This document shows, in pieces, positions 3,867-51,045 of a stretch of 64,000 bases of DNA. The stretch covers positions 18,410 through 82,409 of the forward strand of contig CADCMN010000001.1 in NCBI GenBank assembly GCA_902802575.1. Direction: 5' to 3'. The position numbers and the translations under genes are program-made. How positions within the stretch are numbered: position 1 is the first letter of the stretch; each line of letters opens with the position of its first letter. Below the pieces are notes generated by a model. It was not told where the DNA came from. It was given only the letters and a program-made list of their open reading frames with translations, and ran no database searches. The DNA comes from an uncultured Eubacteriales bacterium. GTDB lineage: Bacteria; Bacillota; Clostridia; Christensenellales; CAG-138.

Positions 3867-3903
3867 TCGGGACTATAGTTCGTAATAAGGGGAGAGACAT
3901 CGT

Positions 3904-6900
3904 ATGAAAAAGAGAGTGATCGCGGCAGTTTTTGCCTTGCTCATTTGTATCATGGCATTATCCATAAACGCTTCGGACTCGTATGCCGATACGAATGGAC
4001 ATACGCGAGCAGAAGCCGTTGCATGGGCAAAAGGAATGGAAAACACAGCCCAAAAATACTATACCCAACCGACGACGTTGGAATGTATGGATTTAGCCGG
4101 TCATTACTATGCATATCTTGGTCACCCCGTCTATAACCTTGGTTGCCCAAATTATATTATTGCAAATACCAATAACAGAGCCGGCGAGAGGGCGTCAACC
4201 GATTTGGGATGGGCTATGTACGGCAGCGATACGGATCCCATGCCCGGAGACCTGGTTCTGTGGCAAAATATAAATTATGGTCATATTGGAATTGTGCTTG
4301 AAGTCTATTCAGATTCATTCCAATATATCGATTATAACGGAAACGGTGCGCACTGTGGCGGCGTGATCCGTTCCATAGAAGGGAAGCGTAGTTTTGACAG
4401 AATAATCCGGCCTGATTTTCCAGACAAATTGACCCTGGACGTCAACGGCTGGCTGGACGGGAAAGACGTGACCAACGTCTATGGCTACGGCACGTTCGAT
4501 ATGTACCTGGGCGGAACCCGGGTGAAGCAAAGCGAAGGCGATTATTGGAATCAGGAAGTCAAGACGGGCACATCCTACACGATAAAGAATGTCAAAGCCG
4601 CCGACGGCAAGGTGTTCGCCGGGTTCAAATCCGGCAAGTACAAGGGGACGGTGTCGCAGAACACCACCGTCGTCATGGAGTTTCGCACCCTCAACAGCAA
4701 GGAATGGGTCAAAAAGCATTCCCCGGCGCAGACAAAGTCCTTTGGCGGTCATACCTACAAGTATTATGCCGACAAGGTGACCTGGATCGAGGCGTTCAAT
4801 TATTGCCAAAGACTGGGCGGCCATCTGGTGGTGATCGATTCAAAGGAAGAGAATGCTTTCGTCAGCGGCCTGATCAAGGAAACCGTCTGGCTGGGCGCGG
4901 TGGATTCCCTGAAGGAGGGCACTTTCATTTGGCTCGACGGTAAAAACATGTCTTACAGCAATTGGGCGACCAACCAGCCGGACAACGACAAGAGCAATGC
5001 CGAGGGCGGGGAGGACTTCGTGTCCATGTATGGACCGGAAACCAGCCAGAGCGGCAAATGGAACGATGTGTACAGCTACGCCCAGTACGGTTTCGTCTGT
5101 GAGATCGACAAAGATGACAATCGCTATACTCTGGACGTGAACGGCTGGCTGGACGGGAAGGAACTGGACAACATCCAGGGCATCGGTACCTTCGATTCCT
5201 ATATCGACAACAAGAAGACTGAAAACGACATCTACGATTATTACAACACCATCCTGCCCAGCGGCACCAAGTATGAGTTCAAGGACATCAAGGCCGCCGA
5301 AGGATATGAGTATGTGGGCGTAAAAAGCGGCTCCCTTTCCGGCACCATGAACGGGAACGTCAAGATCGTGCTGGAGTTCCGCAAAAAGGCGGAACCGTCC
5401 TTCACCTTCCAGGTGGATACAAACAAGTTCGAGGTGGGGGAGACCTATGCCCAGATCGGGTATTTCAAGGTCTATTCCAATATAGATGTGAACCAGATAA
5501 AGCTGGTGGGTTGTGCGCTTTACGCCGCAGACGGCACATATTTGGCTGGCGATGAGGAAAGCGCCTATGCGCAGGGTGACCATCTGACCCATTATTTCCA
5601 CATCAGCGGCGATTCCGGGGAGCAGGATATCCGCTATGCCCTTTCGCCCAACACGAAGTATTACGTGCGCATGTACGTGATCTGCGAGGGAAAGAAGTAT
5701 TACAGCGACAAACAGGCGTTTACCACGAAGGGGTCGGCCGAACCGGCGCCGCCGCAGGTAGTGTATCACACGGTGACCTTCGATGCCGGTGGCTACGGCG
5801 TGTCCTCCGAGACCTCCCGACGGGTGGAGCACGGCAAACCCATCGGTGAGCTGCCGAAGGTGACGAAGACCGTGGATACCCATGAGCCGTTCTTTTTTCG
5901 CTGGGATACGCCGGCTGAGACCATCGTCACCTCGGATATTACCGTGACCGCCATTTGGAAGTGGGGGACGCCGCCTCCGATAACGCCGACGCCTACGCCG
6001 CGGACAGTGACGCCCACGCCCACCAAGAAAACCACGGTCACACCCACGCCCACCAAGAAACCTACGATCACACCGACGCCCCGGCCGGTGACGCCTGGGC
6101 CGACAACGTCCCAAAGCGCATATGTGACGATCAGCGGCTTGAAGAACAAGCTGAGCGTTTGGAAGGAGGCAAATAATCAGGGAGGGCGCCTTGGATACGC
6201 GTATAACGGCGACGTGTTTGAGCTGCTGGCGCTCAAGGGGGATTGGTACATGATCCGCTACAACGGCAAAATAGCGTATGTCACCGGCGAGCATGTGTTC
6301 GCGACCAATACCGATCTGGTGCCTCATTATAAGTCAGACCCTACCCCGACGCCCCGCGCATATGTGACGATCAACGGGCTGAAGAACAAGCTGAGCGTTT
6401 GGAAGGAAGCGAACAATGAATCAGGCCGACTGGGATACGCCTATAACGGCGATGAGTTCGATCTGCTGTCGGTCATAGGGGAATGGTATGAGATCCGATA
6501 TAACGGTATGACCGGATATGTGACCGGCGATCATGTGTATGCGACGAATGAAGCTCTCGTTCCGCATACGGACAAGAACTGGTGGACGTATACCCCGAAA
6601 CCGACGCCGAAACCCACGCCCAAGCCCACGCCGACCAGAGAAGTCTATGTCACGGAGCCTCCTGCTTTCGTCACAGAGCCGCCACCCGAGGTGTATATCA
6701 CTCAGCCGCCTGTCACGGAGGGCCCTGCCCAAAGCGTCATCACGGAACCGCCACAGCAGACGCCGTCCCCGGAATCTGATGTTCTCTTGCCCACGCTTTC
6801 TGCGGCGAATATGCCGACCGAGTCCGCCGACACTGGCGGGGCTGAGACGGAGCCGTCCCCGAAAGCGAGGAAGGACGCGGAGGCGACCGTCACGAAGCGG

Positions 6901-7806: not shown

Positions 7807-9447
7807 ATGCAAGTTATGAAACGGATCCTGGTTTTCACCTTGGCCCTGCTGATGATCTTGGGAGGCTGCAGGACGGCGAACAAGCGCGAGAAGAAAGAGG
7901 ACGTCTTCGACCATCTGGCGGAAACAGATGAGCGGGGAAAGGAGACCCATGTGCCCGCTTCGCCGGAGCCGACCCCGGAGCCCACACCGGAGGCTACAGA
8001 GGAACCCATGGCGGAAGTGACGGCAGAGCCTACGGCGGAACCGACGCTCGAGCCCACTCAGGAACCGACGCCGGAACCTACCCAAGAGCCGACACCCGAG
8101 CCTGCGGCGGAGCCCTCGTCTCAGGCGCCCGTCGTTGAGAACGGTGTGCTGATAGCCAACGAGATCGAGCCCATGGAGACCCATGTGCCTGAGGCGACGA
8201 TCCTCAGCTGGTCCGGCAGCTTTAAGAAGGAAGAACAGATCGACAGTTATACCTTCACCACGGAGCGAGCCGGGGTGTACTGCTTCTTCTTTACGGACAT
8301 CCTGGATGGGCAGGAATACGCCATCCGGCTCACCAATGCCGCGGGGAACGCCGTGTTCAACGGAAACTATAACTATACGTATGGACTGGATGAATCCGCC
8401 GATCTTACGCTGAAGAAGGGCCAGACCTATACGCTGTCCGTGCGTCAGAAGGGCGACTATTACGGCGAGTATACCATCAACGTGGGCGTCCAGAAGGAAT
8501 ATCTGGAAGTGGGCGACTATACGGCCATCTACGACAGCTTTGAATTCGTTCATCAGCAGAACGGCTACACATTTGTCCCGAAGGTCAGCGGCACATACTG
8601 TTTCGGGGTGTCGGGGCTCCCGGAAGGATATTCCTGCGGCATCCAGGTGGTCAACGCCGCCGGAAAAGCCATCACCAACAGCAATTGGAATTACTCATAT
8701 TCGGACAAACAGGGGCATGCGGTCACCTTGTCCGCAGGCCAGACCTATGTGGTGAAGTACCGGGAGAGCGGGTATCGCGGTCCCTATTGCGTGGAAGTGG
8801 GCCTGTATAAGCAGGTGGGGGACGTGAGCAACGTCTTTGGGGTGGATGACAGCATCCAGTTTTTGAACCAGCGGAACCTGTACACCTTCGTCCCGGAGCA
8901 GACCGCCTCGTACCAGTTCGGCTTCTCAGGCATACCCGAGGGCTATTCCTATATGATCCAGGTCGTGAATCCGGTGGGTCAGGCCATCACCAACGGAAAC
9001 TGGAATTATTACTACGGCAACCACGAAAGCCAGTGGGTCAACCTGACGGCCGGACAAACCTATACCATCGTCGTGCGGCCCAGGAACGCGCTGTATGGGA
9101 AATACCGCCTCGACATCAGCGCCTTTTGTGCGCCGGTGGATGTGAAGCTGGACGAGCCCGTACAGGATTCGATCCAGTACCGCCTGCAGAGGAATATGTA
9201 CACCTTTACCCCGGGATCGGACGGCAAATACAGCATCGAACTTAGCGGCATGCCCCCCGAATACAGCTACTACATCCAGGTGTGGAACGGCATCGGGCAG
9301 ATCATCAGCAACGGGAATTGGAATTATACGTACAAAAACGGCAGTTCGCAGACCTTGGATCTGCAGGCCGGCCAGACCTACACCATCATCGTGAAGCAGA
9401 ACGGCAACTTCCTAAGCGACTACACCATCCGCATCCGCCGGAAATAG
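7807..9447 (+). CDS. lipoprotein with four tandem ~105-aa beta-sandwich (pre-peptidase C-terminal-like) repeats
   Basis: 546 aa. Lipobox-like LLMILGGC, Glu/Pro/Thr linker, four repeats each ending in (A/K)GQTYT..V......Y. Alternative start ATG at 7816 has the better RBS. Confidence 0.75.
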   Translation: MQVMKRILVFTLALLMILGGCRTANKREKKEDVFDHLAETDERGKETHVPASPEPTPEPTPEATEEPMAEVTAEPTAEPTLEPTQEPTPEPTQEPTPEPAAEPSSQAPVVENGVLIANEIEPMETHVPEATILSWSGSFKKEEQIDSYTFTTERAGVYCFFFTDILDGQEYAIRLTNAAGNAVFNGNYNYTYGLDESADLTLKKGQTYTLSVRQKGDYYGEYTINVGVQKEYLEVGDYTAIYDSFEFVHQQNGYTFVPKVSGTYCFGVSGLPEGYSCGIQVVNAAGKAITNSNWNYSYSDKQGHAVTLSAGQTYVVKYRESGYRGPYCVEVGLYKQVGDVSNVFGVDDSIQFLNQRNLYTFVPEQTASYQFGFSGIPEGYSYMIQVVNPVGQAITNGNWNYYYGNHESQWVNLTAGQTYTIVVRPRNALYGKYRLDISAFCAPVDVKLDEPVQDSIQYRLQRNMYTFTPGSDGKYSIELSGMPPEYSYYIQVWNGIGQIISNGNWNYTYKNGSSQTLDLQAGQTYTIIVKQNGNFLSDYTIRIRRK

Positions 9448-12387: not shown

Positions 12388-13596
12388 ATGAGAGCAAGCA
12401 GTAAAAAACGGATCCTGCGCTGGGTCATCCTGGATCTATGCGCGTTTTGTGTGATGGCGTATCTCATCTGCGCTCAGGTGTTCCGCTTCTTCCCCTGGAA
12501 ACCGGTGGATATAACCGAAACGATGACCGTTTTGGCCACGCCGACGCCCGTCGTGACAACGCCCACACCGGCGCCCACCGACACGCCCACTCCCACCGAA
12601 ACGCCTGCGCCGACCACTGAAGGAACGGACGCCCCCGGCGGCAGCGATCCCCAGGCGGCAGCGAGCGCTCCGGCGGACACGCCCGAACCCACCGCAACCC
12701 CCGAACCCACGCCGGCGCCCACGGAGGAGCCCAAGGGGCTGCTTCGCGGTAAATATGCGGAGAAGTTCTCCGCCAGCCAGGTCGTTTCCACCGAAAAGGA
12801 ATATCGCAGCGAAAACGTGGCCATAGAGATGACCTCTAAAACCGGTTATGTGTGCAAAAAATGTTATCATACGTCGGAGAATTACGGGACCTGCCCGTTC
12901 TGCGGAAGCGAGTTGACCAACAAGTCCGGCAAGAACGGCAACAAATTGACCTATATGGTGGCGGATATCTACGTACAGGATGTCTCCAGCCTGCGGACCG
13001 CATACAGCGACAGCAATCAGAAGAGAGTTAAGGATATGTGCAAGGAGAACAACGGTCTCCTGGCCATCAACGGGGACATGTACATGACATCCCATAAAAA
13101 CAATTACGGATGGTTCGTCCGTAACGGGGTAGAGATCGCACGGCACAGCAAACTGCGCACCGATCTTTGCATACTGTATTCGGACGGTACCGTGGAGACC
13201 GTGGATATCCAGACCCAAACGGTGAACATTGAAGGTATCTACGCAAAGTACCCCCAGCAGATTTGGTACTTTGGACCGGCGCTTCTGGGGGCTGACGGCT
13301 CAGCCAAGGATACATTCACCATCGGCAGAAATGTGGCCGGCAACAATCCCCGTTCTGTATTTGGATACTATGAACCCGGCCACTATTGCTTCATCACGGT
13401 GGACGGCCGGGATAATGATAGGGGCATTTCCATGGCGGAGCTGTCCATGCTCTGCGCGGATATGGGCATGGCCGCAGCGTACAACATGGATGGAGGCGGC
13501 TCGTCCTGTATGTATTTTGCCGGAAAGAACTACGGGCAGAACACGCGCGGTACAACCGATATCGTCTACATAACTGAACCTGCAAAGGAGAATTAA
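12388..13596 (+). CDS. phosphodiester glycosidase (NAGPA/DUF2233) family protein with inserted zinc ribbon
   Basis: 402 aa. Signal anchor, Pro/Thr/Glu linker, CKKC..CPFCG ribbon, LLAINGDMY and AYNMDGGGSS family motifs. Confidence 0.8.
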   Translation: MRASSKKRILRWVILDLCAFCVMAYLICAQVFRFFPWKPVDITETMTVLATPTPVVTTPTPAPTDTPTPTETPAPTTEGTDAPGGSDPQAAASAPADTPEPTATPEPTPAPTEEPKGLLRGKYAEKFSASQVVSTEKEYRSENVAIEMTSKTGYVCKKCYHTSENYGTCPFCGSELTNKSGKNGNKLTYMVADIYVQDVSSLRTAYSDSNQKRVKDMCKENNGLLAINGDMYMTSHKNNYGWFVRNGVEIARHSKLRTDLCILYSDGTVETVDIQTQTVNIEGIYAKYPQQIWYFGPALLGADGSAKDTFTIGRNVAGNNPRSVFGYYEPGHYCFITVDGRDNDRGISMAELSMLCADMGMAAAYNMDGGGSSCMYFAGKNYGQNTRGTTDIVYITEPAKEN

Positions 13597-15321: not shown

Positions 15322-15398
15322 GGGGATGTAGCTCAGCTGGTTAGAGCGCTGTGTTCACATCGCAGAGGTCTAGGGTTCGAGTCCCTACATCCCCACCA
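15322..15398 (+). tRNA. tRNA-Val (anticodon CAC)
   Basis: Manual cloverleaf. Acceptor GGGGATG/CATCCCC, D stem GCTC/GAGC, anticodon stem CTGTG/CGCAG with loop TTCACAT, T arm TAGGG-TTCGAGT-CCCTA, discriminator A, encoded CCA. Confidence 0.9.
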
Positions 15399-15437
15399 AA
15401 GAAACAGCCACCCAATGCGAGACACCGATAAGGAAGT
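15375..15437 (+). repeat. left arm of interrupted long palindrome (tRNA-Val T-loop through 3' trailer)
   Basis: Inverted match to 25517..25582 in three identical blocks: gttcgagtccct (12), accaaagaaacagccaccc (19), accgataaggaagt (14). Confidence 0.85.
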
Positions 15438-15583
15438 AAACAAATCATATCGGGTTTCGCAGTAAGGGCAAAGGATTTCGGAGAGAGTGAAAAAGCTCTC
15501 TCCGATTTTCATGTTTGCACATTTGTGTTTCTGTGAAGATGCTGATATGCTGAAAGCAGAAAAACACAAAGGAGGTGTGAAAC

Positions 15584-15958
15584 ATGGAAAAGTACATTGT
15601 GGATGAGCAGAACGGATTGGAGTATGAATTGGTCGGGGATTATTACATCGTCGCCGGTGAGGACGAACCGCCGGCGAGACCGATCGGCGTATGGGGCACT
15701 ATGCGGCGCGACTATCTGAAACGGTACCGGCAATCGCTGTATTATCAACTGTTGCTTTCGGGCAAACTGAACGATCACCTTGCCGACATGGAAGAACAGG
15801 CGCAGGATTTGATGTGGACGCTGACAAAGCAGATGGCAAAAGCTGAAGGCGTGACTGAGGAATTGAAACGCAAAGATCAGATGGCGTGGGTAGGCGCGAT
15901 GAACAGCATTCAATCTCGCGTGAGAGAAATAGTTAATCATGAATTGATTTTCTCATAA
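15584..15958 (+). CDS. tnpV: TnpV family protein
   Basis: 124 aa. Family-typical IGVWG..R.YLK..R...Y..LLLSGKLN.HLAD..EQAQ..., AEGVTEELK..DQMAWVG.MN and ELIFS C-terminus. Confidence 0.8.
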   Translation: MEKYIVDEQNGLEYELVGDYYIVAGEDEPPARPIGVWGTMRRDYLKRYRQSLYYQLLLSGKLNDHLADMEEQAQDLMWTLTKQMAKAEGVTEELKRKDQMAWVGAMNSIQSRVREIVNHELIFS

Positions 15959-15970
15959 CAGCCGTATGAG

Positions 15971-16006
15971 AATGCTCGTCGGATTCGTACCCGGCGAGCA
16001 TTTTTC
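15971..16006 (+). terminator. intrinsic terminator after tnpV
   Basis: aatgctcg..cgagcatt hairpin followed by ttttt. Confidence 0.75.
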
Positions 16007-16016
16007 ACAGATTCGG

Positions 16017-17027
16017 TCAGGATTGCAGAGCTTTCAATACCTCTCCACTGTCGCCGTCGATACAGATGGAGTACGGCTTGATCTGCTTCGGGCAGATCGC
16101 TTCGTTATAGTTTAGACAGGCGTAGACCGCATTCGGGTTCTCCACGGTCAGCGCCCAGAAGGGGTATTTGATGATGATCGGCGTATTGGCGCCCACGCCG
16201 ATCTCTAAGTACAGAACGTGCTTTTCCTTGCACGATTCCAAAAAGGCGGCGTAGCGAGCCGACGCTTCGCGCCAACCGGCGTCTTCCACGAAGGTATCGT
16301 CGGCGCGCAGATTCATCGTGACCGCGCTCCCGTCGTCGGGGCAGCGCGGGATCAGTTCGTGGGGAAGACGCATGGAGATCAGCCGATCCCTCGGAATCTG
16401 AAAGACACCGTTCCCGTCCGGAATAAAGCGCTGGGCAGCCATTGCTTTGATTACCCAGTCCCGATTGTCGTACGTCTTGCCGTTTTTTCCGCTGATCGTC
16501 TGGAACAGCCCGTAATCCCCCTGCGTATAGAACAGGCGTTTTTTTTCGAAGCCCGCACGCTGAAACTGATGATCCACGTTGGTGGTGATCACGAAATAGT
16601 TTTTATCCTTGACCAACGCAAGCAGATTCTTATAAACCGGCTTCGGCGCGTCGATATAGCGGTTATAGTAGATATGCCGCGCCCACCATGCCCAGCGTGT
16701 TTCCTCGTCCGGGAACGGATAAAAACCACCGGAATACATATCCGTAATCCCAAACTGCTTTTTGAAATCGAAGAAAAACCGCTCGAAGCGTTCGCCGGAA
16801 TAGGTCAGTCCCGCGGCAGTGGACAGGCCCGCGCCCGCGCCGATCACGATCGCGTCGGCCGTCTCCAATTCGTGTTTCAGCAGGGCGATGTTCTCCTCAC
16901 GGCTGCCTGTTCCGTAGGAAAGTCCGGCGCGGAACGACCGCACTGCGGCAAGCCCCTTTTCGATTGTTTCAAGATACCCATTGGGCTGTTCATGATAAGA
17001 GCGCTTCATAGTATCTTCTGTCCTCAT
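16017..17027 (-). CDS. SIR2 family protein, SirTM-like (macrodomain-linked sirtuin)
   Basis: 336 aa (start may be Met-7 at 17009). IGAGAGLSTAAGL, ITTNVDHQF and YTQGDYGLFQ motifs. Overlaps the upstream macro gene by 20-38 nt. Confidence 0.8.
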   Translation of the reverse strand: MRTEDTMKRSYHEQPNGYLETIEKGLAAVRSFRAGLSYGTGSREENIALLKHELETADAIVIGAGAGLSTAAGLTYSGERFERFFFDFKKQFGITDMYSGGFYPFPDEETRWAWWARHIYYNRYIDAPKPVYKNLLALVKDKNYFVITTNVDHQFQRAGFEKKRLFYTQGDYGLFQTISGKNGKTYDNRDWVIKAMAAQRFIPDGNGVFQIPRDRLISMRLPHELIPRCPDDGSAVTMNLRADDTFVEDAGWREASARYAAFLESCKEKHVLYLEIGVGANTPIIIKYPFWALTVENPNAVYACLNYNEAICPKQIKPYSICIDGDSGEVLKALQS

Positions 17028-17796
17028 CCTTGAATACGTTAAAGATCACGCGGTCGATCTGCCCTTCGTGCGTTTGCATCCAATCCTCAACCGCTTGAAC
17101 CGCGATCTCGGCGGCACGCTGCTGTGGAAAGCCGAACACACCCGTGGAGATACAGCAGAACGCGACAGAGCGCAGCCCTTTTTCGGCGCACAGATTGAGC
17201 GTGTTGGTGTAGCAATCCGCTAAGTCTTGTTCCAACGCAGGGGTGAGCCGACCGGACACGATGGGGCCGACGATGTGGATCACTTTCTTGGCGGGCAGGT
17301 TATAGGCGTCCGTCAGCATGGGCACGGCGGTCGGCTGCTCGTAGCTGCTGCCGTATCTTGCCCGCAGCCGATTCATCTGCCGATTGCACTCCGCGCGAAG
17401 TTGGACACCTGCAAATGTATGAATACAGTTGTCGATGCAGGTGTGCATGGGCACAAAGCAGCCCAGCATCTGCGAGTTGGCGGCATTCACAATGGCGTCT
17501 ACAGAAAGGCGCGTGATGTCGCCCTGCCAGATGGAAAGATAATCCCGAATAACGGGAATCTCCTTGACCGTTACGATCCCTTTTTCGGCATTCCGTTCGA
17601 TCAGATATTCGTCTTGGATCGCAAGCACCTCGTCCGGCAGCGCCTTCGGCAGACGAATGTTCATCAGAGAGCGAAGAATCCTTCGCTTTCCTTCCGAATC
17701 GGAAGGCGTCTGCAGGTCTCGGTATGTACCGGAATCTTCTTTGAAAGCCTCCACCAGATAGTCGAGGCGCTGATCGTTTGTCATTTTCTCATTCAT
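16990..17796 (-). CDS. macro domain protein (protein-ADP-ribose hydrolase, MacroD-like)
   Basis: 268 aa. WQGDITRLSVDAIVNAANS, IHIVGP and SVAFCCISTGVFGFP motifs. Confidence 0.85.
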   Translation of the reverse strand: MNEKMTNDQRLDYLVEAFKEDSGTYRDLQTPSDSEGKRRILRSLMNIRLPKALPDEVLAIQDEYLIERNAEKGIVTVKEIPVIRDYLSIWQGDITRLSVDAIVNAANSQMLGCFVPMHTCIDNCIHTFAGVQLRAECNRQMNRLRARYGSSYEQPTAVPMLTDAYNLPAKKVIHIVGPIVSGRLTPALEQDLADCYTNTLNLCAEKGLRSVAFCCISTGVFGFPQQRAAEIAVQAVEDWMQTHEGQIDRVIFNVFKDEDRRYYEALLS

Positions 17797-17801
17797 GTGC
17801 G

Positions 17802-18428
17802 TTACCTCTTTTCCACAGCGCTAACAGGACAGACCTCCATACAGTTTCCGCAATGCAGGCAGTGCGCCTGATCGATCACCAACGGTACGCTATCCACACA
17901 AATGCACTGCTGCGGACAGACCGGTACACAGGATCGACACCCGATGCAGGCGTCCGTGATGAAATATCCCTCAGTTTTTCTCTCTGCGCCGCCGAAGGTG
18001 AAGGACGCCCGCTCAATCGGCTTCTTGGAAAGATCGAACCATTCACCGCTGCCCTCATAGATGTGGAAAACGGTCAGCGCGTGCATGGACTCCTCTGTGG
18101 GATAGATCTCCCGCATATACGGGTTCTTTTCAAAAAGCATCGATATCGCTTCGTAACCGAGTTCTCTGACCTTTCCTCGAATGGAAACCGCAACAGAGGT
18201 CATAGTCGTTTCGCCCTTTATTGCGGTCAAAGCAAGAAAGCCACGCTTCTTGAGACGGTCATAGAAGCCCTTGCCTTTTGCTGTGAGGAAATATAATCCG
18301 TTTCCATCGCTGTCCATCATGTCGATGGCGGCGGTCACAGGCAGGCCTTCGTCATCTACCGTTGCGACAACAGCCGTATGGATTTCATTTACCAAGTAGG
18401 CGAGATAATCTTTCGTATTCATATCCAT
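17802..18428 (-). CDS. pyridoxamine-5'-phosphate-oxidase-like flavoprotein fused to 2x[4Fe-4S] ferredoxin domain
   Basis: 208 aa. N-terminal split-barrel-like region. C-terminal CIGCRSCVPVCP and CLHCGNCMEVCP. Confidence 0.75.
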   Translation of the reverse strand: MDMNTKDYLAYLVNEIHTAVVATVDDEGLPVTAAIDMMDSDGNGLYFLTAKGKGFYDRLKKRGFLALTAIKGETTMTSVAVSIRGKVRELGYEAISMLFEKNPYMREIYPTEESMHALTVFHIYEGSGEWFDLSKKPIERASFTFGGAERKTEGYFITDACIGCRSCVPVCPQQCICVDSVPLVIDQAHCLHCGNCMEVCPVSAVEKR

Positions 18429-18476
18429 GACTTTCGTGCAAAGAACGCCGGACGACGCTTTTGAAGTCCCTCGTTC

Positions 18477-18917
18477 TCATTCTCCATTTGCGATCCTTTC
18501 CAACGCGCCGTTTTTCAAGTCCTCGATGGTATATCGCTTCATCTCGTCCTCCATCGCGCATTGGATCGCTTTCAGCTTGTCATCCAAAAGCGCATGAATG
18601 TTACGTCCCACGGGACAATCCGGGTTAGGACTTTCATGGAAATGGAACAGATCGCCGTTTTCTACCGGCTCAATCGCTTCGTATACATCATAAAATGTGA
18701 TATCGGCAAGCGGTTTTGTGATGATTATGCCGCCGGTGCCTCGCAGAACTTCGATCAATCCCGCACTTTTCAACTGCGTCAGAATCTTGCGGATGATCAC
18801 GGGATTGGTGTTGATCGACCCTGCAAGAAAGTCACTTGTAACCTTATATTCATCCTTAAAGACTTCCACACAAGTGAAGATATGCAGCGCCACCGTGAAT
18901 CTGCTTGAAATCTGCAT
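18477..18917 (-). CDS. Rrf2 family transcriptional regulator
   Basis: 146 aa. N-terminal MQISSRFTVALHIF winged-helix signature. Confidence 0.8.
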   Translation of the reverse strand: MQISSRFTVALHIFTCVEVFKDEYKVTSDFLAGSINTNPVIIRKILTQLKSAGLIEVLRGTGGIIITKPLADITFYDVYEAIEPVENGDLFHFHESPNPDCPVGRNIHALLDDKLKAIQCAMEDEMKRYTIEDLKNGALERIANGE

Positions 18918-18932
18918 GAATACCGCCTCCTC

Positions 18933-19970
18933 TTAAAAGCATCTCTGCTTACGTTCGCTCTTGCAGCGCTCGATGTTCCCGCAACGATAGCAAAGCTCGT
19001 TGTCGCACATACCGCCGTTTTCAAAGTACGACAGGATGTTGTTCACGGTCGTCTCAGCGATGTTGTTCAGCGCTTCCTCGGTCAGAAACGCCTGATGCGA
19101 CGTCACGATCACGTTCGGCATGGAGATCAGCCGGGACAGCAAATCGTCATTCAGAATATGTCCGGAGCGATCTTCGAAGAAAATATCCGCTTCCTCCTCA
19201 TATACATCGAGACACGCCGCACCGATCTTGCGTGCCTTGATGCCGTCCAACAGCGCTTCCGCGTCGATCAGCCCGCCGCGGGAGGTGTTGAGGATTACGA
19301 CACCCTTTTTCATCTTCGCGATTGCATCAGCATCGATCATGTGCCGCGTTTCGTCTGTCAGCGGACAGTGCAGGGAGATCACGTCGCTCTTTGCAAACAG
19401 CTCGTCGAGCGTAACATATTCGATCCCGCTGTCTGCTGCCGGAAATCGGTCGTAGGCGATCACATGCATTCCAAAGCCGCGGCAGATATCAATGAAGATG
19501 CGGCCGATCTTGCCCGTACCGATCACGCCGATCGTCTTACCATGAAGATCGAAGCCGGTCAACCCTTTTAGTGAGAAATTGAACTCCCGCGTACGGTTGT
19601 ACGCCTTATGGATGCGGCGAACGGAAGTTAACAGAAGCGCCATCGCGTGCTCCGCAACCGCATAGGGCGAATAGGCGGGTACGTGAACGACGTGCACCTT
19701 GCCGAATGCGGCGCGGACATCCACGTTGTTATACCCCGCCGAACGCAGCGCGATCAGCTTGACCCCGTTTTTATAGAGCTTGTCGATCACGGCGGCGTTT
19801 GCCGTGTCGTTGACGAAGATGCAGACAGCGTCGCAGCCCGCCGAGAGCGCGGCGGTATCCCCGTTCAATTTGGTTTCAAGAAAGCGGAACTGCATGTCAT
19901 GCAGTTTTCCATATTTCTCGAATGACGGCTTGTCATATGGCTTTGCATCATAGAATGCAACTTTGATCAT
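18933..19970 (-). CDS. ldhA: D-isomer-specific 2-hydroxyacid (D-lactate-type) dehydrogenase with Cys-rich C-terminal tail
   Basis: Start chosen at MIKVAFYD (GGAGGG RBS 7 nt upstream). GVIGTGKIGR NAD motif. C-terminal CDNELCYRCGNIERCKSERKQRCF extension. Confidence 0.85.
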   Translation of the reverse strand: MIKVAFYDAKPYDKPSFEKYGKLHDMQFRFLETKLNGDTAALSAGCDAVCIFVNDTANAAVIDKLYKNGVKLIALRSAGYNNVDVRAAFGKVHVVHVPAYSPYAVAEHAMALLLTSVRRIHKAYNRTREFNFSLKGLTGFDLHGKTIGVIGTGKIGRIFIDICRGFGMHVIAYDRFPAADSGIEYVTLDELFAKSDVISLHCPLTDETRHMIDADAIAKMKKGVVILNTSRGGLIDAEALLDGIKARKIGAACLDVYEEEADIFFEDRSGHILNDDLLSRLISMPNVIVTSHQAFLTEEALNNIAETTVNNILSYFENGGMCDNELCYRCGNIERCKSERKQRCF

Positions 19971-20084
19971 GCACATCCCTCCGATTTGCTTTACATATAC
20001 GATTTCGCCGGACATATGCGGGCATACGTCCGGCGCTTCCTAATTGTATTCTACCGCAATTTGGCTGTAATTACAAGTATTACA

Positions 20085-20858
20085 TCAAAACTTGCCATTC
20101 TGGTTCTGCCACGTATCCTTGTCCGCGATTGTCTCCATGACGTCCCAGTGCTCAGCGATCTTGCCGTTCTCTACTCTCCACAGATCATAGTAAGAAGTAG
20201 GCACTCCGCCGAAGGTTCCTTCGGAAACCGCAAGAACATAATCGCCCTGTGCCAGCACCTGATGCACGGTGGTATAGATCATCTGGATGCCTGCTTCGGC
20301 AAGAGATGCCAGAGCTGCGCCGAGACCGGAGAGCCCATCAGCAATGCCGGTATTGTGCTGGATATACTTGTCGTCGTCGAAGTATTCAGGCGTTTTCTGC
20401 GGGTTATTTCCCTGCATCACGTCATACAGGAAGTTCTTGACCAACTCGCGGTTTGCTTCGGTCTTGTCAAGATCCTTCACGGAAGCGACATTATCGATCT
20501 GCGTATGACCGGAGGGGTTCGGTTCAGCTTTGGCAGCGAGGTTATCCCAATGCTCGGCGATCTTCCCATCTGCATCGAAGCGGAAGATGTCGAACGCAAC
20601 CTGCTCACCCATACCTGCGAAGTTGTAAACGGTCTGCAGGAATACCTTGTCGCCGTCCTCGTAGGCGCGGATGTTGTTAACTGTGGTCTTCACAGGAGCG
20701 GAGCCAAGATAGGCAACGCTGCCGACAAATGCATCCGCACCGGTGCCGTAGGCTAGGTTGTGCTGGATATAGCCGGGAGCCAGAAGTTCCTTCGCGGTCT
20801 CGGTGTCGCCGGTAACGAAGCAGTTGATCAGAGTAAGGGCTTTTTCGATGTTTGTCAT
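20085..20858 (-). CDS. tandem SnoaL/NTF2-like fold protein
   Basis: Start at MTNIEKAL (AGGAGG RBS). Two similar halves, each with ..YIQHN.. and ..IAEHWD.. motifs. Confidence 0.65.
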   Translation of the reverse strand: MTNIEKALTLINCFVTGDTETAKELLAPGYIQHNLAYGTGADAFVGSVAYLGSAPVKTTVNNIRAYEDGDKVFLQTVYNFAGMGEQVAFDIFRFDADGKIAEHWDNLAAKAEPNPSGHTQIDNVASVKDLDKTEANRELVKNFLYDVMQGNNPQKTPEYFDDDKYIQHNTGIADGLSGLGAALASLAEAGIQMIYTTVHQVLAQGDYVLAVSEGTFGGVPTSYYDLWRVENGKIAEHWDVMETIADKDTWQNQNGKF

Positions 20859-21322
20859 GGTAGTGACCTCCTGAAAGATATTTGATGTAACCGTCGTGAT
20901 TTCATCTGGATGCAATATAGCACATCCTTGTTGTAATGTCAATAGTTACATCTAAAATTTTTTGGTTTTTTGTTCTGTGTTGCTTCAAGCTATTTTTGAG
21001 GATTGTCTAAATGAAAAAGGAGAGCGGCATTGCAACACTCATTGTCGAATCCTGCAAAGGAGTTATATCGGGGTTTAAGGGGACACCCTTACGAACGGAT
21101 TTTGCGGCAAATGCCAGCAAAATCCAATGCTGGCTAATCCTCAACAGATCATCCTCTTTCTTCAGCGCCTTTCGGATCGGGTTTATCATGGGTATTATGC
21201 GCTGAAGGCGGATTAGAGGCGGCAGAAACGATCTCTTTCGCTTCCGCGCATGGCAGAATAGGATGCGAGCAAGTTACGAGTCCGAATAAACGGACTTGCA
21301 TTCTAAGTGAAAAATAAAGTTC

Positions 21323-21352
21323 TTGCTTTTTCGGCAAGGTGTGCCGTATAAT
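21323..21352 (+). promoter_or_regulatory. candidate sigma-70 promoter
   Basis: TTGCTT, 18 nt, TATAAT, inside a ~1.1-kb non-coding lower-GC stretch. Confidence 0.35.
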
Positions 21353-21358
21353 CGTATT

Positions 21359-21538
21359 GTCGAAAGCGGAACCGCCGAGACAAATTGAAAACTGAATAAC
21401 GCAAAACAGTTTCTAATCGCGCAAGCGGGGCAGGATCCGCAAGGACTGAAAAACCACCAAGCACCGTACGAAATTGGATTGAGATCGGATAGGAATATCC
21501 GCCGTCTCAGTTCATTTTGTACGGTGCTTTTTCTTTTC
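21359..21538 (+). ncRNA. candidate ~180-nt structured small RNA (family unknown)
   Basis: Lies downstream of the promoter above. Ends in a 10-bp helix AGCACCGTAC/GTACGGTGCT (21460-21469 / 21519-21528) followed by TTTTTCTTTT. Has internal GCGG..CCGC hairpins and no convincing ORF. Confidence 0.3.
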
Positions 21539-22072
21539 TCGGCAGCCGGACGATCAAAGTATTTTTGAACGATGTCGTTTTTCGGCATTCCAGCCCCCTG
21601 TAACTAAACAGAAAGGTCAAAAGGAGAGGCAACTAAATGCCGCAAAAATATATTTTCAAAAACCACCGCCCAAAAACGCAAAAATGTTCCCCAAAGAAAG
21701 TAGAGGGACTTATTCAGAAGCACCTTGAAAACCGAATATTGAAAACGCACAAATGAAGGATTTATGAACAGTTCCTCTGAAACTGCAAAAAACGGCTGCA
21801 ATTTCGCATTGGGTATGAGAGGCAGAGAATTGTGAAGAAACTGCAAATCCTTTCCAATTCACCTCTGAAATTTCACCAATGCACAGTGAAAGGATTTTGA
21901 ATGCGACCGGCAAGAGAGAACGCCGGTGCAGATACACCGTTTCCCCCGATCAAGGAAACGAGACCGTTGCCGCTTCGGGACGCCGGAGCGTTAAGAACTG
22001 AAATCGACGAAAGAGAGGTACAAACCATGAATCCTTACAACCAAACAAACAACCTTGCGGAGGCATCCCGAC

Positions 22073-22918
22073 ATGAAAGCATCCGGTGAAAAAGTAACGA
22101 ACATTGCGATCGATCAGATTCATCCGTTTCCGAATCATCCGTTTCAGGTGAACGACGACGAAGCAATGGAGCGCCTGAAAGAAAGCATTTCGCTCAACGG
22201 CGTGTTGACGCCCGCAACGGTACGGCAGTTGCCGGACGGATCGTTTCAGATGGTTTCCGGTCATCGGCGCATGGCGGCGTGTAAAGCGCTGGGTATGGAG
22301 AAGATGCCGGTGATCGTTAGGGAGATGGACGACATCACCGCAACGCTGACGATGGTGGATTCCAACCGGCAGCGCGAATCGCTGCTGCCGAGCGAGAAGG
22401 CGAACGCCTACAAAATGCGGCAGGACGCCTTGAAAAGCCGTTCCGTGGGACAAGTTGTCCCACAGGGCGGACGGACGACCGAGCAGATCGGAAATGAGAC
22501 CGGCGAAAGCTACAAGACCGTGCAGCGGTTTATCCGGCTGACGAAGCTCATCCCACCGCTGCTGCAAATGGTGGACGAAGGCAAGATGGGCATGATTCCG
22601 GCGGTCGAGCTTTCCTACCTTCCGACAAAGGAACAGGAGGCGGTGCTGTCCGCCATCGAAGCAGAGCAGAGCGTCCCGTCGCTCGCACAGGCGAAAGCGT
22701 TGCGAAAGAGCTATGTCGAGGACGAGTTCACCGACGATACCCCGCTTTGCGTTCTGTCTGACAGCAAGTGGAAACCGGCGGAGAAGCTGACGCTGCCTAT
22801 GGAGCGCTTTGCAAAGTTCTTTCCGAAAGACGCCACGCCGAAGCAAATGGAGCAGGCGATGCTGGAGGGCTTGGAACTGCGGCAGAAGCGGATTCGGTCG
22901 CGGCAGCAGGAACGGTAA
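22073..22918 (+). CDS. ParB N-terminal (ParB/Srx) domain protein
   Basis: ORF 22055..22918; ATG at 22073 has a GGAGG RBS. IDQIHPFPNHPF and VSGHRRMAACKALG motifs. Confidence 0.8.
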   Translation: MKASGEKVTNIAIDQIHPFPNHPFQVNDDEAMERLKESISLNGVLTPATVRQLPDGSFQMVSGHRRMAACKALGMEKMPVIVREMDDITATLTMVDSNRQRESLLPSEKANAYKMRQDALKSRSVGQVVPQGGRTTEQIGNETGESYKTVQRFIRLTKLIPPLLQMVDEGKMGMIPAVELSYLPTKEQEAVLSAIEAEQSVPSLAQAKALRKSYVEDEFTDDTPLCVLSDSKWKPAEKLTLPMERFAKFFPKDATPKQMEQAMLEGLELRQKRIRSRQQER

Positions 22919-23103
22919 TCGGAGATGGATGGGGCTTCCTTCTTTGGTAGGTATTTGGCATGGGGGACGCTGCTCCCCCGTACCGGATCGATCCGATGCA
23001 GCCATGGCTGCGTTGGATTAGCGAGCATTGAATTTTGCCGGCATTCGGCCAAATTCGTAACGTAAGGGAGTTCCCTTAAACCCCAGCATATGACAAAAAA
23101 GGA

Positions 23104-23515
23104 GATCAAACACATGAAACGCACCAATAAAATCACGTTCCGGCTATCGGATCAAGAGCTTGCCCGGTTCAAGCAGCAGGTCAAGGAAAGCGGATTGTTT
23201 CAGGAAACATATCTGCGGTTTCTGATCGAGGGCTTTTGCCCAAATCAGCTTCCTCCGCCGGAGTTCTGGAAAGAAATGGGAGGTTTTTTCAAAGCGTTGG
23301 GCAATCTGGATGAATTGGCAAAAATCGCGTATCGCACCGGAAACATCCATTACGAGGAAATCCGGGAAATGTATCGGGACATAGCCGAGCATATTCACCG
23401 GATCGAGGATGAAATCTTTCATCATGTTCCTATTGACCTGCGGAGCATTCCAAAGAAAGACCGTCCGAAACAGAAGTACAAAGCACCCGCGAAACAGGAG
23501 GAAGAACAGGCATGA
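23104..23515 (+). CDS. MobC-like / ribbon-helix-helix mobilisation accessory protein
   Basis: ORF 23090..23515; ATG at 23104 follows AAGGAG. KITFRLSDQELARFK..YLR pattern. Confidence 0.55.
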
Positions 23516-23715
23516 AAGATATGAACGGAAAAGCAGATGATTGCATCGTTTCGCTGATCCCTTATCTGTACGACAGCATGGAAGCGGCGACGCAGCCGGA
23601 GACCTTTACCGTGCAGATCGGGAAAACGGAATATGTGGTCAACACCCATTTCAATCCGAACGGTCGGCAAACCATGTTTCAGCAAATGAAGGACTTGATT
23701 CTGCGGCAAGATTGA
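23512..23715 (+). CDS. tnpW: TnpW family small protein
   Basis: 67 aa. IGKTEYVVNTHF....GRQT......KDLILR pattern. Start overlaps upstream stop (ATGA). Confidence 0.65.
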   Translation: MKDMNGKADDCIVSLIPYLYDSMEAATQPETFTVQIGKTEYVVNTHFNPNGRQTMFQQMKDLILRQD

Positions 23716-23737
23716 CAGGCGGAGCCGGGTGCAGTAG

Positions 23738-25468
<1,731 letters not shown>

Positions 25469-25516
25469 CGGAAACGGAGCAGCCCTTTCGGACTGCTCCG
25501 CCCCTCACACAAGAAA

Positions 25517-25582
25517 ACTTCCTTATCGGTATCGCCCTAATCGGGTGGCTGTTTCTTTGGTATTTTTGGGAGGGACTCGAAC
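25517..25582 (-). repeat. right arm of interrupted palindrome (inverted copy of tRNA-Val T-loop and trailer)
   Basis: Its reverse complement reads gttcgagtccct-cccaaaaat-accaaagaaacagccaccc-gattagggcgat-accgataaggaagt. Confidence 0.85.
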
Positions 25583-25729
25583 GGATGCGGGAGTGAAAGG
25601 AGCGCCGGTGGCGCTCCAGAGCCTGCCCATGGGCTTCGCCCGGCCTCACTGAAACAGCTCCACCGGAGCTTTTTCCTGGCGCTCGGCTCCAACCAAGCCG
25701 CAGCGTAAATTCGAGTCCCTATCCCGCCG
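25568..25729. repeat. multi-hairpin module closed by T-arm-like inverted repeat; right end is a tRNA 3'-end-like fragment
   Basis: GGGAGGGACTCGAA (25568-25581) pairs with TTCGAGTCCCTATCCC (25710-25725). A second helix is TGCGG/CCGCA. Internal hairpins: GGAGCGCC-GGT-GGCGCTCC, GGGC-TTC-GCCC, CAGCTCC-ACC-GGAGCT. 25710-25729 reads T-loop + CCCTA + TCCCGCC + G. Confidence 0.6.
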
Positions 25730-49820: not shown

Positions 49821-50072
49821 GTGATCGACCGATTCTGGCTCGAATCCATTGCGGCAAAGGACGCCGACACAGCGGAAAAAGCTTTCCGGCAACGGCAAGG
49901 GAAAGAGCTGTTTGCATGCTGGCGCGACAAGGATTGGTATCAAAGTGAAAAACCTGCCGATGAAAAGATGCTGCTTGCATACGAAACGGGCGGAATCGAT
50001 GCCTGCATGGCGCTTCTCACAAAAACCTGTCAGCGCAACATGAAAAAGCTGAAGGAAGGGGGCATTCTGTAA
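49821..50072 (+). CDS. hypothetical small protein
   Basis: 83 aa ORF with a GTG start and a poor RBS. Confidence 0.3.
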   Translation: MIDRFWLESIAAKDADTAEKAFRQRQGKELFACWRDKDWYQSEKPADEKMLLAYETGGIDACMALLTKTCQRNMKKLKEGGIL

Positions 50073-50100
50073 ATCAGCAGCCCGCACCGCGCCGATAACA

Positions 50101-50498
50101 GCATCCCACCGCTGAAGCATCCACAATATCGGTAAAAACCCGTTCGGATCCTGACGTCTCCGAATAAGGCCAAAACACAGGAATGGGGAGTACGGCCCCC
50201 AGATATTTGAATATATAACGGGGTGGGATTCGACCCGCGCTGCGGCGCGGGCCATGGGCTCGGCTCTCAGGCCCCACCGGGGCCTGATTCACTACCGAGC
50301 CCGTTCGAATCCCACCGTCTCCGGAAGGCCAAAACACAGAGGTGGGGAGAACGGCCCCCAGAGACTTGAGCGCCCGCCGGGGTGGGATTCTGCCCTTGCC
50401 GCTGAAAACGCCGCACTGCGGCGTTTTCTTAACGCGGCTTCGAATCCCGCCGTCTCCGGAAGGCCAAAACAAAACCACCCATGCGGGTGGTTTTGTTT
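50101..50498. repeat. array of tRNA-Ser 3'-end-derived fragments in alternating orientation with conserved spacers
   Basis: Plus-strand copies of TTCGAATCCCACCGTCTCCG at 50304 (20/20), 50439 (19/20) and 50143 (16/20). Inverted partners GGTGGGATTCGA at 50222 and 50381. Conserved spacer ggccaaaacacag..tggggag.acggcccccaga..ttga occurs twice. Confidence 0.75.
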
Positions 50499-50587
50499 TG
50501 GCGGAGACGGTGGGATTCGAACCCACGGAACATCGCTGTTCAACTGATTTCGAGTCAGCCCCGTTATGACCGCTTCGATACGTCTCC
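50499..50587 (-). tRNA. tRNA-Ser (anticodon CGA)
   Basis: Manual fold. Acceptor GGAGACG/CGTCTCC, anticodon stem GCTGA/TCAGT with loop CTCGAAA, long variable arm GAAC-AGCGAT-GTTC, T arm GTGGG-TTCGAAT-CCCAC, discriminator G, encoded CCA. Confidence 0.85.
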
Positions 50588-50604
50588 AGGCAGAGGGAAA
50601 AAAA

Positions 50605-51045
50605 TCAACGCTTTCTTTGAAAGAATTCCGTGAGCAGGGCGGCGCCGTCCCTTTCCAGGATCCCGCCCCAGGTCTCCACTGAGTGATAGAACCAATGGTC
50701 CGTCAGATCCACCCGGGAGCCTGTGCAGCCGCAGCTCGTATCGAAAGCCCCGAAGACCAGCCGGGGGAGCTTCAAAAGCACCATGGCCCCGGCGCACATG
50801 GCGCAGGGCTCCATGGTCACGTACAGGGTGCAGCCGGTCAGGGACCCGAGCTGCCGCTGGGCTTGACGAAGGGCCAGCAGCTCCGCGTGCTGGGTGGGAT
50901 CATTGTTTTGCCGGGACAGGTTGTGGGCCCGGGCCACGATCTCGTCATCCTTGACGACCACGGCCCCCACGGGTACCTCGTCCTCCTGTAAGGCGGCCTG
51001 AGCCTCCTGGAGCGCCGCCCGCATCCACTGTTCATCATTCCTCAC
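50605..51045 (-). CDS. tadA: tRNA adenosine(34) deaminase
   Basis: 146 aa. HAELLAL and TMEPCAMCAGA zinc motifs. Confidence 0.9.
   Translation of the reverse strand: MRNDEQWMRAALQEAQAALQEDEVPVGAVVVKDDEIVARAHNLSRQNNDPTQHAELLALRQAQRQLGSLTGCTLYVTMEPCAMCAGAMVLLKLPRLVFGAFDTSCGCTGSRVDLTDHWFYHSVETWGGILERDGAALLTEFFQRKR

Follow-up and report, generated by a model that had tools for sequence, protein, structure and literature searches.

Hairpin modules with arms that copy the neighbouring tRNA gene lie behind tRNA genes of gut and rumen Clostridia

Transfer RNA genes are the main landing sites of prophages and genomic islands, and the displaced tRNA fragments found beside them are usually treated as passive scars. 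In integron attC sites and the attP hairpin of CTX phage, a folded stem rebuilds the duplex recombination site. Site-specific integration at a tRNA gene is generally recognised by a regenerated tRNA gene together with a displaced 3' fragment of tRNA-encoding DNA (tDNA), and attP sites in the T-stem region are the commonest class (PMC4383910). Here we analyse a window of 64,000 nucleotides (nt) from an uncultured Eubacteriales bacterium (contig CADCMN010000001.1; the window is the whole stretch of DNA under study, and positions are counted from its first letter), in which both tRNA genes, tRNA-Ser(cga) and tRNA-Val(cac), are followed by segments complementary to their own 3' ends. Each anti-tRNA segment is the left (5') arm of a non-coding hairpin module of ~75-160 nt that lies within a partial duplicate of the tRNA 3' end, and it pairs with the tRNA fragment duplicated further downstream instead of with the tRNA.

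Read along the tRNA strand, the order of parts is tRNA, intrinsic terminator, short AT-rich spacer, 5' arm, core and 3' arm. The 5' arm is the complement of the T-loop and the 3' strand of the T-stem over 10-12 nt, and occasionally reaches the acceptor; the core consists of two or three hairpins; the 3' arm repeats the tRNA in direct orientation, starting at about T54/T55 and often continuing through CCA into a second terminator. The two arms pair to close a three-way junction, the stem of which has the sequence of the tRNA gene's own T-loop/T-stem duplex.

This anatomy is repeated in tandem behind tRNA-Ser(cga) (50499-50587, minus strand; found by ARAGORN and, with 52.8 bits, by the Rfam tRNA model). 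An earlier, sequence-only reading of the locus had reported a trailer complementary to the 3' end of its own tRNA, and this is borne out: CTTCGAATCCCGCCGTCTCC (50438-50457) matches GTTCGAATCCCACCGTCTCC of tRNA-Ser on the opposite strand at 18 of 20 positions, a match for which dinucleotide shuffles give an expectation of 0. Three such copies lie 3' of the gene (50438-50457; 50303-50322, with 20/20 matches; and 50142-50162, degenerate). The second and third copies, the partner arms in sense orientation and the homology between the Val and Ser modules are additions to what that reading contained. The perfect copy opens module B (50221-50322, minus strand), which has the canonical form that we call type 1 and scores 107 bits (E = 3e-23) with our covariance model. 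Between its 5' arm GGAGACGGTGGGATTCGAAC (50303-50322) and its 3' arm TCGAATCCCACC (50222-50233) the core comprises helix P2 (GGGCTCGG/CCGAGCCC), the internal loop AGTGAAT and two hairpins, P3 with the loop CCGGTGG and P4 with the loop CGCA. Module B contains a 12-nt inverted repeat at 100% identity. The sequence enclosed by each arm pair of the window folds much better than shuffles of it; for module B the fold energy is -75 kcal/mol (z = -6.8).

Module A (50381-50457, minus strand), the first behind the tRNA, is of a short type 2 that lacks P4. Its 5' arm GGAGACGGCGGGATTCGAAG (50438-50457) is complementary not just to the T-loop and T-stem but also to the acceptor 3' strand; its core is a GCCGC/GCGGC helix with a hairpin at 50404-50428; and its 3' arm CAGAATCCCACC (50381-50392) carries the sense-orientation partner GAATCCCACC. 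The match of this module to the covariance model is weak (17 bits, E = 0.5), and the z-scores of its fold are -3.2 (tRNA-sense strand) and -4.6 (plus strand). The same type also comes first in line in close relatives (L005, L007 and L009), and intermediate forms exist. Module C is a remnant on the minus strand (50142-50162), a degenerate 5' arm GGAGACGTCAGGATCCGAAC that gives way to unrelated sequence; its counterpart in another relative (L003) retains the beginning of the core.

The module of tRNA-Val(cac) (gene at 15322-15398, plus strand; ARAGORN and Rfam) occupies 25568-25721 of the plus strand. It is a type 1 module in which the P4 region is enlarged, and it scores 41 bits (E = 6e-7) with the covariance model. 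Its 5' arm GAGGGACTCGAAC (25569-25581) leads into a core homologous to that of module B, and its 3' arm TTCGAGTCCCTA (25710-25721) is the partner in sense orientation. The trailer complementarity proposed for this tRNA holds for the T-loop and T-stem, where the complement of TTCGAGTCCCTC at 25570-25581, 3' of the right half of the Val terminator palindrome, has 1 mismatch in 12, and does not extend to the acceptor strand. The Val module and module B can be aligned without gaps over 62 nt, in which they are ~70% alike, with hairpin stems that differ by compensatory changes. They share the pattern GGGAYTCGAACGG..CGG.AGTGAA..(hairpin with CCGGTGG loop)..AGAGCC...CCCATGG. The modules at the two loci are therefore homologous, and the arms of each are adapted to the tRNA that it follows.

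Our scan of one genome per species with the core motif recovered 39 genome loci, nearly all in metagenome-assembled genomes of Oscillospiraceae, Clostridia or Eubacteriales from gut and rumen. In ~30 of the 39 the motif is co-directional with a tRNA gene and lies 49-82 nt 3' of it, immediately past the terminator hairpin of that tRNA. At least 10 amino-acid types are represented among the tRNAs with modules, including Ser (cga, tga, gct, gga), Val, Leu, Gln, Trp, Asn, Ala, Glu, Gly and Arg, and the chromosomal modules are co-oriented with their tRNA in every case. The similar trailers that had been noted at the two window loci reflect a bidirectional terminator of an A-rich and xCACCC type, which recurs across the family.

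The left arm clearly tracks the T-loop of the neighbouring tRNA: ACTTGAA for Leu, ATTTGAA for Ser(gct), GCTCGAA for Val and Asn, AATCGAA and AGTCGAA for Gly, GATCGAA for Trp. The fit of the 12-nt arm to its own tRNA, scored in 26 loci, is 10.85 of 12 positions, as against 9.21 +/- 0.18 in shuffled pairings, and 0 of 10,000 permutations gave a value as high. The contention that each trailer is matched to its own tRNA, and not by chance, therefore stands. Seven T-loop positions are exact in 26/26 units and all eight T-loop variants are followed exactly, the non-palindromic loops of Leu (TTCAAGT) and Ser (TTCAAAT) among them; the outer T-stem positions of the arm match only about half of the time. 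An exact T-loop and a loose outer T-stem would be expected if the T-loop were a crossover region that needs identity and were flanked by protein-binding half-sites. Complementarity to the acceptor strand, by contrast, is no family trait: in a permutation test it amounts to 3.24 for a module's own tRNA and 3.22 for shuffled pairings. It is restricted to the Ser(cga) lineage and a small number of further loci. For the acceptor part, the same test also tells against palindrome extension, an idea that we had considered, by which the left arm would generally mirror the entire tRNA end on the other side of the terminator.

The layout recurs beyond the main family, in a minority of lineages only. We sampled unselected metagenome contigs that carry the exact tRNA-Ser 3' end of the window (79 loci) and found an anti-T 12-mer (0-1 mismatch, within 200 nt) in 4 of them, where chance would give ~4e-4 per locus, plus a clear relative (L129). 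Among the sampled loci, three metagenome contigs with tRNA-Ser(gct) (L064, L089 and L096) have tRNA, terminator, a complement of the acceptor and T-arm, a simple perfect hairpin and CCGAATCGCCCAAC. Their centres are unrelated to the core of the main family, and in L096 a second complete tRNA copy takes the place of the fragment.

The structural alignment, made from 30 units, defines four helices, P1 (formed by the two arms), P2, P3 and P4, and the covariance model derived from it retrieved 66 units at E < 1e-5. The arms close a three-way junction around the conserved core. Standard pairs fill 88% of the pair cells in 64 distinct units, compared with 34-47% in slid controls; both sides have changed in 402 cells, 31 of the 35 pairs show such changes, and none of 500 shuffles reached the observed values. 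A tandem G·A mismatch occurs in P2 of half of the units, and the unpaired AGTGAAT, the CCRGTGG loop and GAGCC are conserved. The helices nevertheless lack the wobble signature of RNA: among 2090 pairs, 44 are G·U and 56 are A·C (p = 0.27), whereas in 34 neighbouring tRNAs the 408 pairs of the acceptor and T stems include 22 G·U and 0 A·C. A hint of sense-strand selection in a smaller set (G·U to A·C, 12 versus 4) disappeared in this full alignment.

We compared the fold with described RNAs. Rfam 15, run on the window, the locus and the phage relatives described below (gathering score, and again at E <= 10), returned the tRNAs and nothing else meaningful. A resemblance to 5S rRNA (GGUAGUG, AGCGAAG) has no 5S match in Rfam, and by inspection the AGTGAAT/GAG internal loop fits neither the K-turn nor the loop-E consensus cleanly. 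The tRNA-like domain of tmRNA, YrlA Y RNAs and acceptor/T-arm minihelices offer a further parallel, in that GGAUUCGA(A)C follows the acceptor 5' strand and the 3' end is T-arm-like; where both acceptor strands are present, the arms make a minihelix. In the modules, however, the T-loop nucleotides are predicted to be paired, acceptor pairing is usually absent and there is no tag reading frame. A tmRNA or Y-RNA identity, suggested by a likeness of the 5' GGAUUCGAAC and the T-arm-like 3' end to the tmRNA ends of B. subtilis ssrA, finds no support from ARAGORN or Rfam, and the acceptor strands are unpaired; the best match to tmRNA_permuted (24 bits against a gathering score of 47) covers the palindrome only, and ARAGORN reports just the two tRNAs in the window. 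A degenerate, convergent tRNA-Ser on the plus strand was likewise rejected, as it has no acceptor 5' strand and no cloverleaf, and ARAGORN returned nothing.

The 3' arms tie the modules to the duplication of tRNA ends. In 17 of the 41 units with an identified tRNA, the 3' arm goes on to repeat 22-23 nt of the tRNA end, starting at about T54/T55 and including CCA, with no more than 1 mismatch, and copies that reach CCA often precede a near-copy of the tRNA's own terminator (L012, L013 and L019). Relatives therefore show a displaced direct 3' tRNA fragment beside an intact tRNA gene, as tDNA islands do. The sequence-only reading had staked itself against the two loci being isolated attachment-site duplications made by integrases; direct duplications of tRNA ends of that kind do exist, while the feature lies behind many tRNAs and not at two loci. 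One relative (L022, minus strand, ~1560-4240) carries the tRNA-Gln 3' end TTCGAATCCTTCTCCCGCTGCCA three times in direct orientation, each time with a different terminator. The copies bracket a 2.4-kb insert, which is bounded at the same T54 position and encodes a TnpV-like protein (called by eye from its similarity to the Pfam-confirmed TnpV of the window) and another small open reading frame (ORF), and, after it, one module. The locus looks like tandem accretion at a single T-loop site. No integrase was found in the 2.5-kb stretches between tRNA-Gln and the module in L022 and L043.

Modules also turn over as arrays. Contigs with identical TadA proteins differ in the number, identity and order of the modules behind tRNA-Ser, and these differences among relatives can be explained by recombination between the repeated arms. 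Arrays hold up to five diverged units, whose copies differ by compensatory substitutions that keep the fold.

In several respects the modules resemble the islands and prophages that tyrosine integrases install at tRNA genes (the Islander signature). They share with them the intact tRNA gene, the direct 3' fragment from T-loop/T-stem to CCA and tandem accretion, and the 2.4-kb insertion in L022 has the same boundary as the modules. They differ in that the "island" is ~95-170 nt long, has no integrase or other gene and contains a conserved hairpin core, and in having the T-loop/T-stem also as a reverse complement, a copy that does not arise by classical integration. To integron attC sites and the CTX-phage attP hairpin they are alike as imperfect palindromes with structure conserved above sequence, inverted half-sites and a variable or structured centre; they too occur in arrays of short units, and their folded stem would rebuild a duplex site. 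The module arm, however, is a tRNA T-loop, not GTTRRRY or dif, and the core has strongly conserved unpaired nucleotides. As read from the sequence, the arm ends ATTCGAAC and GTCGAAT fit the attC box consensus (RYYYAAC ... GTTRRRY) only partly. No integron integrase, attI or cassette ORFs between units were found at these loci (the remainder of the genome was not searched for an integron integrase). We therefore use the likeness to attC and CTX-phage sites as a working analogy, not as membership.

Short interspersed repeats offer the remaining comparison. Like miniature inverted-repeat transposable elements (MITEs), REP/BIME, BOX, Correia and bcr elements, the modules are short, non-coding, hairpin-rich, intergenic and multi-copy, and often stand beside terminators; their phage relatives, which occur in either orientation, resemble such repeats. 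The chromosomal modules differ in being confined to tRNA 3' ends in a fixed orientation, with arms that copy the neighbouring tRNA. We know of no cognate transposase for them. They depart from MITEs in that the arms vary with the tRNA and the copies within a genome have diverged (Val versus Ser; the array in L029). TCGAA flanks the core on both sides and, as a target-site duplication, cannot be told from the duplication of the tRNA end.

The reading that we favour, although we hold it at slightly less than an even chance, is that the modules are a gene-less element acting at the level of DNA, mobile now or formerly, at attachment sites in tRNA T-loops. An insertion or duplication bounded at the T-loop would give the tRNA gene a replacement 3' end and terminator, and would displace the original 3' tRNA fragment to the far side of the module. 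If the left arm were kept complementary to that displaced fragment, a hairpin could form in single-stranded or supercoiled DNA, and the folded module would then expose a T-loop duplex on which a recombinase provided in trans could act, as with folded attC and CTX-phage sites. It is conceivable, though we think it quite unlikely, that the analogy goes further and the modules are cassette-like mobile DNA without genes, whose folded site a tyrosine recombinase acting in trans would join to tRNA T-loops and whose relatives would colonise phage hairpins. Three features favour selection for a DNA hairpin over selection for an RNA, without proving it: the helices have no excess of G·U, a consensus scan of the Ser locus (49900-50750) found no promoter-like site, and the phage cores lie in both orientations.

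A number of observations weigh against the favoured reading. At 75-160 nt the modules have no ORF, no recombinase is encoded in them or next to them, none was linked to them, and we found neither an empty site nor a circular junction. Copies within a genome are diverged, unlike the near-identical copies of a recently active MITE, and classical integration does not explain the origin of the reverse-complement arm. The direct copies in the window are short (GTCGAATCCCACC, 13 nt, and the Val 3' arm, 12 nt), and the duplication is clearest in relatives. Only the last unit of an array retains the acceptor/CCA part, the inner units being without acceptor, CCA or terminator, and such arrays look like tandem duplication, not serial integration. 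Co-orientation with the tRNA and the terminator behind most units would also suit a transcribed RNA. The tandem G·A of P2 is strand-specific, which implies that one strand matters and does not distinguish RNA from DNA.

The main rival is a structured non-coding RNA, transcribed either as read-through of the tRNA or from a start of its own, and ending at its own terminator. Its arm helix, with a tail of acceptor strand and CCA, would resemble part of a tRNA and might, for instance, bind or titrate a factor that binds tRNA ends, or serve as a stable 3' structure. Modules always on the strand of the tRNA, a terminator or terminator-like hairpin usually behind each unit, strong covariation with conserved unpaired AGTGAAT, CCRGTGG loop and GAGCC, a tandem G·A of a sort common in RNA, and diverged tandem copies that preserve the fold are all in keeping with this; in L021 both acceptor strands are present, so that the arms reproduce an acceptor/T-stem minihelix. 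We nonetheless consider an RNA unlikely, since G·U pairs do not exceed A·C pairs as they do in the adjacent tRNAs, every unit is preceded by a terminator while the scan of the Ser locus showed no promoter-like site, phage cores are antisense to the flanking genes as often as sense, Rfam 15 has no match even at E = 10, and many units, those of the window included, lack the tRNA-like tail.

Two further explanations rank below an RNA. The modules could be a neutral by-product of template switching or fold-back at the terminator hairpin and T-loop, of the decay of attachment sites, or of both, with the core as filler or a hitch-hiking repeat. The T-loop TTCGAA is self-complementary and nearly palindromic, the complement spans the terminator through to the acceptor in the Ser(cga) lineage and at a Leu locus (L016), L064, L089 and L096 share the layout around unrelated centres, and indels interrupt the long palindromes, as expected of unstable perfect ones. 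What makes such an origin improbable is that the core is conserved with compensatory changes over many tRNA types and phages, as filler would not be, and that diverged tandem copies retain all helices; besides, the acceptor mirror image is not general, and the T-loops of Leu and Ser are tracked exactly although they are not palindromic. The other explanation is the model of the sequence-only reading, in which the anti-tRNA segment of a read-through RNA pairs with the upstream T-arm and acceptor, sequesters them and so controls folding or processing. The complementarity to the adjacent tRNA is indeed real and specific, and at the Ser locus the tRNA end, terminator and anti-tRNA segment make up one long quasi-palindrome. 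Yet the segment has a conserved partner in cis downstream, a terminator stands between it and the tRNA, most loci have no complementarity to the acceptor, the helices carry no wobble signature of RNA, and a 10.1-kb insertion parts tRNA-Val from its module while the tRNA-Val gene is intact. Only ~5 of the 79 unselected loci with the same tRNA 3' end have the feature, from which we infer that it is no general part of the maturation of this tRNA. We regard sequestration as highly improbable.

Relatives of the core also occur in phages. The P2-P3-P4 core recurs in twelve IMG/VR phage contigs, where it is closed by other arms (CCCCTT.../...GAGGGG) and accompanied by mini-hairpins of the GCGAAGC or GCGCAGC type. 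There are 1-3 copies per contig, which occupy gaps between genes and may point either way with respect to them; one sits between a portal gene and a terminase gene. In one of these contigs (L052) the three copies (4424-4500, 9062-9138 and 12696-12772) are identical save for a hairpin segment of ~15 nt with compensatory changes. We found no similar sequence among GenBank phages (INPHARED) or PLSDB plasmids.

A literature search found no published description of a tRNA-end hairpin module. The components are familiar, namely displaced tRNA fragments, terminators and hairpin repeats, and it is the conserved module with arms that copy the neighbouring tRNA that appears to be undescribed. Where displaced fragments have passed for scars, the module is a conserved, structured, gene-less unit built on such a fragment, behind at least ten types of tRNA and with relatives in phages of the same Clostridia. 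If it is a folded recombination site, single-strand-folded att sites would extend beyond integrons and Xer-dependent phages, and the instability and assembly breaks seen at tRNA loci would be easier to explain. If it is an RNA, it would represent a new class of tRNA-end-associated RNA that is absent from Rfam. In practice, island finders that use tRNA fragments as a guide can be misled by the modules, which also mark hairpin hot spots of the kind that a serine-recombinase element has used at the adjacent Val terminator palindrome.

That element bears out the view that these sites are palindromic and that one of them has served as a recombinase target. The Val terminator palindrome is split into a left half CCAAAGAAACAGCCACCC (15396-15413, plus strand) and a right half GGGTGGCTGTTTCTTTGG (25543-25560, plus strand), which now lie 10.1 kb apart. 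Between them, on the plus strand, is an inserted mobile element (15414-25542) with the inverted ends CCGATAAGGAAGT and ACTTCCTTATCGG, which has divided the terminator loop exactly. Its left end encodes a TnpV (15584-15958; Pfam) and its right end a large serine recombinase of 570 aa (23756-25468) with Resolvase, Recombinase, zinc-ribbon and DUF4368 domains (Pfam E-values of 1.7e-26, 1.7e-24 and 9.3e-14 for the first three). It has the features of a large-serine-recombinase element, which in the window applies to the Val insertion only, and it is a separate insertion, unrelated to the module family. A search for an uninterrupted tRNA-Val site by way of the flanking proteins returned just the same contig or no record.

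The inner palindromes at both loci (50463-50502; 15396-15413 with 25543-25560) are ordinary hairpins of intrinsic terminators with A and T tracts, and the complementarity that continues past them into the tRNA T-arm is a property of the neighbouring module and no part of the terminator. At the Ser locus the bidirectional terminator consists of CCAAAACAAAACCACCC, a 4-nt loop and GGGTGGTTTTGTTTTGG, a perfect 18-nt inverted repeat (50463-50480 and 50485-50502). The tRNA is followed by CCACCC, a GCAT loop, GGGTGG and then TTTTGTTTTGG, as in an intrinsic terminator. The palindrome grows outward to arms of 38 nt (50433-50470 and 50490-50527) with 79% complementarity, the extension being broken by a 5-nt GAAGG asymmetry. 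A simple terminator scan did not list this terminator, in our reading probably because the A and T tracts were counted as stem pairs.

Upstream of tRNA-Ser(cga), on the minus strand, lies tadA (50605-51045), whose product has TadA-type deaminase domains by Pfam; the ORFs that flank the Ser modules encode TadA and two proteins without a Pfam match. Modules A and B are separated by a spacer (50333-50369, minus strand) with a terminator-like hairpin TGGGGGCCGTTCTCCCCA and a T-rich tail. A 45-nt direct repeat between the modules (50166-50210 and 50325-50369, 87% identical) contains a weak terminator-like hairpin (GGGG..CCCC followed by TGTGTTTTGG) and looks like a degenerate trailer of tRNA-Ser. 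Most of the assemblies whose TadA is identical to that of 50605-51045 (L001-L009) are short and end in or just after tRNA-Ser or a module; evidently, the module repeats break short-read assemblies. One of them (L004) has a tRNA with a different variable arm. Two others (L006 from ~1250, and L003 at 2353-2413) share the left arm and the 5' strand of P2 and then continue differently (…GAGAGCAAAGCCGGACATAGGCCGCC…), with the inner palindrome of L006 oriented opposite to that of module B; this variant may be another core type or an inversion between inverted repeats. At a further locus (L030, 725-975), a module is broken just after GGTAG in the internal loop by ~230 nt of unrelated sequence, and two truncated modules then start at P3, each after CGGCGGTCCGGCCCTTTTTTGCCGGTCCGG, ahead of a tRNA-end copy and terminator.

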